A program made the translations under genes and the position numbers. A model generated the notes under the pieces. It was not told where the DNA came from. It ran no database searches and worked only from the letters and a program-made list of their open reading frames with translations. DNA of 64,000 bases from a virus (taxonomy: Duplodnaviria > Heunggongvirae > Uroviricota > Caudoviricetes): the IMG/VR virus record IMGVR_UViG_3300029641_000003. The stretch is one strand, 5' to 3'. Shown piece after piece: positions 8,221 through 10,114 of the stretch. Each line of letters begins with the position of its first letter. Within the stretch, counting starts at the first letter, position 1.

Positions 8221-9327
8221 TCACTCAATGATTTTTTCTGCTGTCAGCCAGCTAATTTCTTGCCTGTCTTTCGGCGGTTTTAGCATGTGGGCGTATTCAG
8301 CGACATTCTCCCACGGAATTGTTTTTGCCCACTCAACGATAGCATTGTGATCTGCAGTGAAGAGTGGAATGGTGTGCGATTTCAACCACTCTAATGTTGT
8401 AACGCCATGTTTTTTGGCGTGGTGCTGTGCATGATGCCGGGCTATCACTAGTAATGGCATTGTCCATTCACTACCATCATGCATCGTAAAGCGCATTGTT
8501 TTCGGCATATCTGATTCAAGAACAGCCTCCCGAATACCCGGGAACTCACCAAGAACCATGCGACGGTAATCATCGCCGCTTTTACCACCATACATTTCTG
8601 CGATCCCATCAAGATAATCTTGAGTAAGCAGAGGTGATTCTTCTGCGTTCAGCTTGATGGCAGTATAAATACCACATGGATTTTCTTCAGTTTTTGCACG
8701 ACCATGATGGGAATCGTAAAAGTGTCCATGTTCCTCCTCTGGAGGAGCAGACGTCAAAAGTATACGTGAGTCGCCACTAACTAAAGATGCTCTTAACATC
8801 CCGAATAGCCGATAGCTTACCAGAGCCGCGTCCATAACAATGATCAAAAGATGTTCAGCATAATATCCGGCTACATCTTCCTCATAATTTAGGCGATATG
8901 GTTTAATTTCGCAGCCCCAAGATTTTTGGTAACGATGATTGAGGCCATTTTGGTCGATTTGAAAATACTCTCCCAGTAATGGCGCTTTTGTATTAGCTTT
9001 CTCCCAATACATATTCATGAGTGAGAGAGTTACCATTCCATTACGCTCAAAGTCTGGAGCGACCATGACCGTTTTAGACTCAGGCATCAGGATCGTATAA
9101 AGGATACAAATGATAGCCATAGCAGACTTATGCCCTATCCCAGTCGGTGTGGTAACGCTGACTGCTGAACCTTTTTGTTGAATCGCCTCAACAATTAATT
9201 TTTGCTGGTGGGTTAACTTAACCCCCATCAACTCTTCTGCTGCTAATGCCCAGTCATGGCTATATTTGCTTACCAGCTCTCTCCACTCTGGTAATTCGGT
9301 GATGTTTTTAGGCGTCAGCATCAGCAT
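8221..9327 (-). CDS. PacB-paralogous terminase-like ATPase
   Basis: 368 aa; long stretch alignable by eye to PacB at 14676..16184 (YAEHLLIIVMD / HAEHLLLILDE; HGHFYDSHHGRAKTEENP / SGYFYESHHSRAKAEGNP; MVLGEFP / KVLGQFP). Confidence 0.7.
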   Translation of the reverse strand: MLMLTPKNITELPEWRELVSKYSHDWALAAEELMGVKLTHQQKLIVEAIQQKGSAVSVTTPTGIGHKSAMAIICILYTILMPESKTVMVAPDFERNGMVTLSLMNMYWEKANTKAPLLGEYFQIDQNGLNHRYQKSWGCEIKPYRLNYEEDVAGYYAEHLLIIVMDAALVSYRLFGMLRASLVSGDSRILLTSAPPEEEHGHFYDSHHGRAKTEENPCGIYTAIKLNAEESPLLTQDYLDGIAEMYGGKSGDDYRRMVLGEFPGIREAVLESDMPKTMRFTMHDGSEWTMPLLVIARHHAQHHAKKHGVTTLEWLKSHTIPLFTADHNAIVEWAKTIPWENVAEYAHMLKPPKDRQEISWLTAEKIIE

Positions 9328-10114
9328 CCTCCGCTACCTCTGCTTCCACATCTGCCGCGACTTCATCGGACTGTTCTTCTTTGGCCTGTTCTGCAATCGC
9401 CGCACGGCATTTCGCCCTGGCTGTAGCGATAGCCTCAACTTTCACGTCATTAGGAATACTTGAGGTGACATACATATCCAGTTCTTCAGCACGGAATACT
9501 GTTTTGCCCAGGAATTCATCAAGCATCCAGGTTAAGGAAAAGTCGCAGGAAATCAGGTCTACTTCGCCTTCCGCGCCGTTTGGGAAATGGATAAATATCT
9601 GTTTGCCCAGGCCAAGCACGCGACAAGCAGCCATCATTACTGCAAGTTCCAGGTCTTTGTTTTCACCTGCTACTGGTTGATCCACACCAGTAATAGTGCC
9701 GTTCAAATGGATATTATATGGCTGATATTTAGAGATACGTTCTACACGCCATGTGCCGGTTAAGGTTCCCTGGCGGAAGATTATTGGCGTGACCGAAAGC
9801 GACAGCTCTCGAATGAGTTGTTGCGCTATGGCTGGGTCATACAGCGGATCTAACGCGATGCATCCATAAGACTGCGCCAGTTCAAACAATTCTTCCTGTG
9901 TGCACTGAATGCCTCTTGCCGTAATAAAACGTCTGACTCCCGTTTTCCCATCACGCCAGATAGCAATGCCATTCTCACTATCTAACTCTTCGTCTAAGCC
10001 CAGGTATGTAAGGATGGTTCGCTCAATGGTGGCAAAGGGCAGGGACATATCATCGTTTACATCCACCAGCAGGCCATTACGCAGGCGATATTGAATGTTT
10101 TTGGTATTTTCCAC
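9308..10114 (-). CDS. hypothetical protein with strongly acidic C-terminal tail
   Basis: 268 aa; C-terminus EEQSDEVAADVEAEVAEDADADA; overlapping operon partner. Confidence 0.6.
   Translation of the reverse strand: MENTKNIQYRLRNGLLVDVNDDMSLPFATIERTILTYLGLDEELDSENGIAIWRDGKTGVRRFITARGIQCTQEELFELAQSYGCIALDPLYDPAIAQQLIRELSLSVTPIIFRQGTLTGTWRVERISKYQPYNIHLNGTITGVDQPVAGENKDLELAVMMAACRVLGLGKQIFIHFPNGAEGEVDLISCDFSLTWMLDEFLGKTVFRAEELDMYVTSSIPNDVKVEAIATARAKCRAAIAEQAKEEQSDEVAADVEAEVAEDADADA

Follow-up and report, generated by a model that had tools for sequence, protein, structure and literature searches.

The 64,000-nucleotide stretch of DNA analysed here (hereafter the window) comes from the IMG/VR virus record IMGVR_UViG_3300029641_000003 (Caudoviricetes). 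It belongs to a D6-like, P1-related Escherichia phage-plasmid and carries a cre-like gene, c1, pacA/B, phd/doc, and a C4 RNA. We focus on the gene at 9308..10114 of the minus strand, whose product ends in a strongly acidic tail. Judged by its sequence, this gene encodes the D6-lineage homologue of the phage P1 protein IsaA. A preliminary description of the locus, made from the sequence alone, had compared the tail with those of DNA-mimic antirestriction proteins and of proteins interacting with the single-stranded DNA-binding protein (SSB), and had taken the context to support a role in host interaction. The gene and its signals are the following:

9308..10114, minus strand: isaA-like coding sequence, 268 amino acids (aa), GTG start (exact coordinates from the listing of open reading frames)
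10124..10127, minus strand: GGAG ribosome-binding site, 9 nt upstream of the GTG, read from the sequence
9311..9379, minus strand: acidic Glu/Asp/Ala/Val tail EEQSDEVAADVEAEVAEDADADA, codons 246-268, delimited by composition statistics, in-frame length variants in relatives, and AlphaFold2 (AF2)

The TGA stop codon of the upstream gene (10123..10121) lies between this GGAG and the GTG of isaA, and the two genes thus look translationally coupled.

Family and relatives of the isaA-like gene

The gene shows 72.7% nucleotide identity to phage D6, whose counterpart orf113 is annotated as 'similar to P1 gene isaA'. The protein matches PHROG 2326, an entry of unknown function, with an E-value of 2e-124 (aa 1-257 against profile positions 1-263 of 264). 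A tblastn search matched P1 IsaA with 46.6% identity (E 2e-65), and the two proteins are homologous over aa 2-225. Hence, the protein has both the full-length similarity to PHROG 2326 and P1 IsaA and the carriage by a P1/D6-type phage-plasmid by which we assign members to the IsaA family. Matches at 98-99% identity were found in ~90-kb non-mobilizable plasmids of E. coli and E. marmotae. These plasmid copies, together with the PHROG 2326 and P1 IsaA matches, establish that the gene is real. When we searched 5,426 complete E. coli genomes with megablast, 65 had the gene, in all 65 cases on plasmids and never on the chromosome (the eight plasmids listed are ~90 kb long).

The family is small, since a profile search among 1.84 billion cluster representatives retrieved only 38 proteins, 24 of them below an E-value of 1e-10. 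It is found only on P1/D6-type phage-plasmids. In P1, isaA (P1_gp017, named for 'IS1 insertion-associated gene A') is annotated as 'unknown protein function' and was non-essential in a genome-wide CRISPR interference (CRISPRi) screen of the phage (PMC10695390). We searched the literature for work on the function of P1 IsaA and found none. The protein of the window is a new member of a known, uncharacterised family.

P1 IsaA shares with the window protein its two-domain body and its conserved C-terminal helix. The IsaA of P1 and of phage SJ46 end in a short acidic tail (ELQENTTEEVESD), which in P1 has 13 aa and a charge of -6, whereas that of the window has 28 aa and a charge of -11. The operon also differs, since the gene is in the ssb operon in P1 and in the cre operon in the window. 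The product of D6 orf113 (ASR76412.1) has 72% identity to the window protein, and its gene occupies the same position at the end of the cre operon, preceded by dut and the Tad2-like orf114. Its tail is shorter (AKEEQSNDTAAEEVK, charge -3) and it is followed directly by the terminator, without the PacB-like gene that is found downstream in the window.

The annotated P1 protein has 320 aa, and its first 56 match, with complete or almost complete identity, the N-terminus of the Tad2-like protein J46_0048 of SJ46 (3824-3991 in NC_005856, our L039, against 3149-3316 in L040). Since these residues match the start of a Tad2-like protein, P1 seems to have lost the body of its Tad2-like gene by deletion, leaving a 5' end of 56 codons fused to isaA. 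The genuine P1 isaA probably starts further in, at MTAQNTK.

A comparison with locus L028 (4581-5387), from another clade, reveals that the isaA-like gene is a mosaic. The first ~90 nt and the last ~200 nt have 82-93% nucleotide identity, whereas the middle has 58-72%. This pattern of identity indicates recombination at the ends of the gene. The similarity of the 3' patch thus points to mosaic recombination more than to constraint on individual residues.

Predicted structure and acidic tail

We built two AF2 models, one from 11 sequences (mean predicted local distance difference test, pLDDT, of 82) and one from 30 sequences (mean pLDDT 90.4, predicted template modelling score 0.83). They agree on an alpha/beta domain at around aa 1-90, a second alpha/beta domain at around aa 94-215, and a long C-terminal helix at aa 222-267. 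The first part of this helix (ARAKCRAAIA, within the conserved stretch aa 222-245) is conserved and confidently predicted, and pLDDT values along the tail are 89, 79, and 64 in successive blocks of ten residues. Three valines of the tail (Val252, Val256, and Val260) are spaced i, i+4, i+8. If helical, the tail would be amphipathic with an acidic face.

In an alignment of 30 family members, the only invariant columns are L118, W122, G168, and D213, and the near-invariant residues are mostly Gly, Pro, Ala, Leu, and Tyr. These residue types make for a structural rather than a catalytic pattern of conservation. No conserved (D/E)xK motif was present in the alignment, and we found neither an enzyme fold nor a conserved catalytic motif. 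The preliminary description had named a clear enzymatic fold, together with a dispensable tail, as what would speak against its proposal; we looked for such a fold and found none. The IsaA-like protein looks non-enzymatic. We also found no DNA-binding motif or fold in it.

Searches of characterised families returned little. Scans of the protein with Pfam (E<=0.01), NCBIfam, and PADLOC gave no match, and a Pfam scan of the 30 relatives at E<=1 retrieved nothing relevant and no antirestriction family. Profile searches against PDB sequences resulted in noise only (E>0.2), and Foldseek had no match in PDB at E<=0.001. In BFVD, the sole fold match at E<=0.001 was a P1 fragment of the IsaA family itself, followed at E ~0.01 by uncharacterised phage proteins. 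The fold is similar to that of a Bacillus cereus prophage protein (PDB 1r7l), whose fold is called the 'phage ABA sandwich', with a sequence identity of 13%. This protein is a single domain lacking the N-terminal domain, the C-terminal helix, and the tail, and is itself uncharacterised. It was not retrieved by the IsaA family profile among PDB sequences at E<=10, and no Pfam match links the two.

The acidic tail is borne out by composition. Its 23 residues include 11 Asp/Glu, 7 Ala, and 3 Val, and no Lys, Arg, or His. Given the 13.9% of acidic residues in the rest of the protein, at least 11 of them in 23 positions have a binomial P of ~1e-4, and no other 23-residue segment of the protein has more than 6. 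The net charge is -21 for the whole protein and -10 for the body (aa 1-240), i.e., -0.04 per residue, with a pI of 4.78.

The tail varies among close relatives in IMG/VR, where we found at least six forms (…EAEVAEDADADA, …EAEDADADA, …EAEVAEDADA, …EADADADA, AKEEVKEVADGD, and AKEEQSNDTAAEEVK). The first four differ by in-frame units of 6-12 nt made of GCx and GAx codons, and all the length variants in these relatives are in frame. The last 7 codons of the window's tail also contain the signals by which translation of the next gene (8221..9327) would begin, i.e., the GAGG ribosome-binding site and the start codon(s). More broadly, 17 of the 30 family representatives have tails of at least 20 aa beyond the conserved helix. 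Their sequences are unrelated, being rich in Glu/Asp/Ala in the window and in Gln/Asn/Glu/Pro or Pro/Ala/Glu elsewhere. Yet, 16 of these 17 long tails carry more negative charge per residue than the corresponding body (sign test p ~3e-4). The acidic C-terminal extension is a recurrent but dispensable trait of the family, and we infer that selection on the tail, if any, acts on net negative charge and not on sequence.

Operon, cassette, and the PacB-like neighbour

The isaA-like gene is part of a predicted operon on the minus strand, in the order cre-like, orf117-like, orf116-like, dut, Tad2-like, isaA-like, and a gene encoding a protein of 368 aa:

13363..13390, minus strand: sigma-70-like promoter match TTGGCA-16-TATAAT (11/12, consensus match only)
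12191..13219, minus strand: cre-like tyrosine recombinase gene, first of the operon (Pfam PF00589 and PF02899)
11774..12118, minus strand: gene like D6 orf117, between cre and isaA (PHROG 1968)
11289..11777, minus strand: gene like D6 orf116, between cre and isaA (PHROG 6669)
10798..11292, minus strand: dUTPase gene, dut (Pfam PF00692)
10121..10783, minus strand: Tad2-like gene, 220 aa, with a C-terminal DUF2829 (Pfam PF11195, E 1.6e-22)
8221..9327, minus strand: downstream PacB-like gene, 368 aa (tblastn, BLASTP, and alignment)
8192..8207, minus strand: terminator-like hairpin directly 3' of the last gene of the operon

The promoter match upstream of the cre-like gene is the only strong one between 7.9 and 13.7 kb. 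The D6 counterpart of this gene (D6_118) is annotated as 'similar to P1 gene cre', and in D6 the same hairpin lies directly 3' of isaA. The promoter match is overlapped by a near-perfect inverted repeat (CTAACTTTAAATAAT-TGGC-ATTATTTAAAGTTAG, window 13363..13410, minus strand), which looks like a recombination site of the rox/lox type. The overlap suggests that the recombinase may autoregulate the operon. The consensus of the P1 C1 operator has no match in the whole window with up to 3 mismatches, and hence control of the window's cre operon by C1 could not be shown. Rfam and tRNA scans identified no RNA gene at the isaA locus. Elsewhere in the window, ARAGORN found four tRNA genes (Met, Ser, Thr, and Asn), three of them also found by Rfam, and there is a C4 antisense RNA with its a1/b1 targets (immI-type immunity), which fits an element of the P1 type. 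These tRNA and C4 RNA features lie at 19455..20639 and 33871..34077, both on the minus strand.

The skeleton of the locus, with c1 divergent from cre, orf117, orf116, and, further on, isaA, is conserved in D6. We found it also in contigs of Enterobacter and others from Logan and NCBI, whose proteins have 47-54% identity to that of the window, and in elements of 91-92 kb, one of them from Rosenbergiella metrosideri, at 25% identity. The interval between orf116 and isaA varies in content:

dut and Tad2-like gene: window and D6
Tad2-like gene only: L042
dut only: L045
fusion of dut and Tad2: L044
empty: L041 and L048

In L044 (5064-5978), a single gene of 304 aa has both the dUTPase and the Tad2-like Pfam domains, and is thus a fusion of genes that are separate in the window.

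P1-like phages carry isaA after ssb, behind the C1-controlled ssb promoters. The order is ssb, Tad2-like, isaA in SJ46, ssb, isaA, and a 368-aa-type gene in MH422554 and vB_EcoM-813R1, and ssb, isaA, IS1 in P1. IsaA is thus the constant member of an accessory cassette composed of IsaA with an optional Tad2-like gene before it and an optional 368-aa gene after it. D6-like elements have this cassette in their cre operon, P1-like ones in their ssb operon. A survey of phage-plasmids reported the anti-Thoeris gene Tad2 in 93% of the D6-like and 56% of the P1-like ones (bioRxiv 10.1101/2025.09.12.675607). The Tad2-like protein of the window has an additional N-terminal domain of ~110 aa (PHROG 11049). 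In the translations, the C-terminal half of J46_0048 of SJ46 matches the window's Tad2-like protein residue for residue, while the rest of the two elements has diverged. This match points to a recent exchange of the cassette.

The 368-aa gene starts within the last codons of the isaA tail, either at the ATG at 9327 or, more plausibly, at 9321, 6 nt after the GAGG. It overlaps the stop codon of isaA in the clade of the window, in the L018 clade, and in two P1-like phages. Its product has 34% identity over 258 aa to the window's own PacB (BLASTP, E 1e-48) and 36-37% to the PacB of P1 and P7, i.e., it is homologous to the ATPase domain of PacB. It has neither intact Walker A and Walker B motifs nor the C-terminal nuclease:

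Walker A: GTGKSS in PacB; GIGHKS, GIGRPQ, and GIGETS in the paralogues
Walker B: ILDEAS in PacB; VMDAAL, IVDSAH, and VINSAE in the paralogues

In the alignment, none of the three paralogue lineages conserves the Lys of Walker A and the Asp-Glu of Walker B, each having its own substitutions. In place of the C-terminal ~240 aa of PacB, with the nuclease domain, the paralogues share a conserved, His-rich domain of ~100 aa that is unrelated to it. From its sequence, the protein is probably a terminase paralogue that is catalytically dead. A copy is labelled 'terminase large subunit' in one record, and our literature searches found no description of a dead PacB paralogue coupled to isaA. We regard this coupled gene as a more interesting by-product of the analysis than the tail.

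Three other identities related to packaging were considered and rejected. As isaA precedes and overlaps a PacB-like gene, we compared IsaA with PacA, asking if it was an analogue of this small terminase, and found no relation to the PacA of the window (BLASTP E 0.99, hhalign of the family profile with a probability of 0.1%). The isaB gene of P1 has no similarity to the PacB paralogue, and is thus not a remnant of it split by IS1. The 368-aa gene on the opposite strand of the Enterobacter locus L042 is unrelated to the PacB paralogue. The genuine PacB (14676..16184, minus strand) also has an acidic C-terminus (…EVDIPDIDI).

Candidate roles of IsaA

We tentatively propose, with a probability of around 35%, that IsaA takes part in phage-host or phage-phage conflict as a binding protein without catalytic activity, endowed with a polyanionic tail. 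Our data show the family identity, the class of fold, the lack of catalytic motifs, the statistics of the tail, and the synteny; the mode of binding, the role of the tail, and the partner are what we infer. The gene would be transcribed as a late gene of the operon of the cre-like recombinase. Its product would work by binding another protein and not by catalysis, with the folded domains giving specificity. The acidic C-terminal helix or tail would provide a polyanionic, nucleic-acid-like surface, which might engage or shield a basic and probably DNA-binding surface of the partner. Where present, the translationally coupled PacB-like pseudo-ATPase would be the most concrete candidate partner; otherwise, the partner might be a protein of the host or of a competitor. 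A context of conflict is supported by the CRISPRi result for P1 isaA, the Tad2-like neighbour in the window and in SJ46, the coupled PacB paralogue, the restriction of the gene to plasmids, and its mosaicism.

Several observations weigh against this proposal. The Tad2-like gene and the PacB paralogue are each absent from many elements, so neither can be an obligatory partner of IsaA. In relatives lacking the 368-aa gene (L006, L007, and L003, at ~6796-6850, and L009, at ~6799-6860), its first codons and its last ~14 codons (…QEISWLTAEKIIE*) remain. Two different deletion junctions reveal that isaA and its tail survived at least two independent losses of this gene, and hence that IsaA does not need it. 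The tail is absent or very short in five family members (P0007, P0008, P0011, P0034, and P0038). Its codons show 1 synonymous and 5 non-synonymous differences between the window and a 73%-identical clade, a ratio suggesting that constraint on its residues is weak. The predicted helix of the tail may only reflect a habit of AF2 with Ala/Glu-rich sequences, and negatively charged disordered tails are common, often without specific function. Finally, no member of the IsaA family has a function assigned by experiment or by homology.

About equally likely, in our assessment, is that the tail is an incidental low-complexity extension. It would stem from slippage and recombination in the 3' part of the gene, and from having to accommodate the ribosome-binding site and start of the next one. 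It would then be at most a solubility tag, and the function would be entirely in the folded domains. The numerous variants of the tail in close relatives and their 6-12 nt units fit this explanation, as do the excess of non-synonymous differences, the nearly tailless members, the overlap of the last 7 codons with the next gene's GAGG and ATG, and the recombination patch at the 3' end. However, the unrelated tails of distant members nearly always carry a net negative charge and exceed the body in acidity, the tail is unchanged where the downstream gene was deleted, and all indels preserve the reading frame.

It seems unlikely that IsaA assists the Cre-like recombinase or the maintenance of the plasmid-prophage as an accessory factor, for instance by modulating rox/lox recombination, in the cyclisation that follows infection, or in the resolution of dimers. 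The order cre, orf117, orf116, isaA is kept from the D6-likes of Escherichia to Enterobacter and Rosenbergiella (25-55% protein identity), and the only promoter-like match is upstream of cre, where it overlaps the rox-like repeat. Yet, isaA is in the ssb operon, far from cre, in P1, SJ46, MH422554, and 813R1, and the search for a DNA-binding motif or fold in the protein was negative.

A more elaborate version of the conflict proposal can be put forward as a speculation to which we give a low probability. IsaA, the Tad2-like gene, and the dead PacB paralogue would form a mobile conflict cassette in which IsaA is an adaptor. Its tail, mimicking nucleic acid or the tail of a small terminase, would load or regulate the pseudo-terminase. 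The complex might poison DNA packaging by P1-like competitors or blind a terminase-recognising sensor of the host. If true, such a decoy terminase would be a new kind of superinfection exclusion or anti-defence mechanism.

The two specific readings of the preliminary description rank as the least supported. It is very improbable that IsaA is a DNA-mimic antirestriction protein inserting an acidic tail or surface in the DNA-binding groove of restriction enzymes. Ocr (T7 gp0.3) and ArdA, which are non-enzymatic inhibitors, are like IsaA acidic and borne by phages or plasmids, but they have a charge density around five-fold higher than the IsaA body and display it on a rigid, densely charged surface that mimics DNA. 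The preliminary description had suggested searching for such a charge pattern in a predicted structure, and what we found is a different arrangement: the charge of IsaA is concentrated in a variable tail that some members lack. Neither the Ocr/ArdA fold nor that of another known mimic is among the listed fold matches, and the 30 members have no match to ArdA, Ocr, or another Pfam family that would relate them to these inhibitors. These results outweigh the acidity of the protein as a whole, the anti-defence-type gene nearby, and the presence of Dar/Ddr antirestriction in every P1/D6 element (bioRxiv 10.1101/2025.09.12.675607).

The least credible possibility is that the tail acts as a mimic of the acidic SSB C-terminus, competing for host proteins that interact with SSB: although isaA follows ssb directly in P1-like phages, under the same C1-controlled promoters, it does not adjoin ssb in D6-likes, the protein has no OB (oligonucleotide/oligosaccharide-binding) fold, and the hydrophobic tip ([ILM]PF or terminal Phe) is found in 0 of the 30 family C-termini, that of the window ending in AEDADADA. 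A polyanionic C-terminal extension is indeed common to IsaA, SSB, T7 gp2.5, and T4 gp32. In the latter three, it binds partners or folds over the DNA-binding site of its own protein, and in SSB the acidic tail belongs to SSB itself and bears the hydrophobic tip DDDIPF. Unlike them, the IsaA-like protein has neither the OB fold nor a hydrophobic or aromatic tip; its AF2 model consists of two alpha/beta domains and a long helix, and no SSB-type entry is among the listed fold matches. Hence, a role in host interaction deduced from the context is reasonable as a general statement, while its specific forms, DNA mimicry and an SSB-type tail, are not upheld.

On present evidence, the isaA-like gene is an ordinary accessory gene of modest interest. 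IsaA has been an unexplained gene of P1 since the annotation of the genome, and it can now be assigned to a small cassette, of which it is the constant element and which shifts between the cre and ssb operons. The negatively charged C-terminal extension is a trait of the family and not a peculiarity of one protein, although it is not unusual in itself, and the DNA-mimic and SSB-mimic labels of a quick reading have been removed. P1/D6 phage-plasmids are common in clinical Escherichia, Shigella, and Salmonella. If the cassette is a conflict module, it would offer a handle on the competition between these elements or on their evasion of host immunity.

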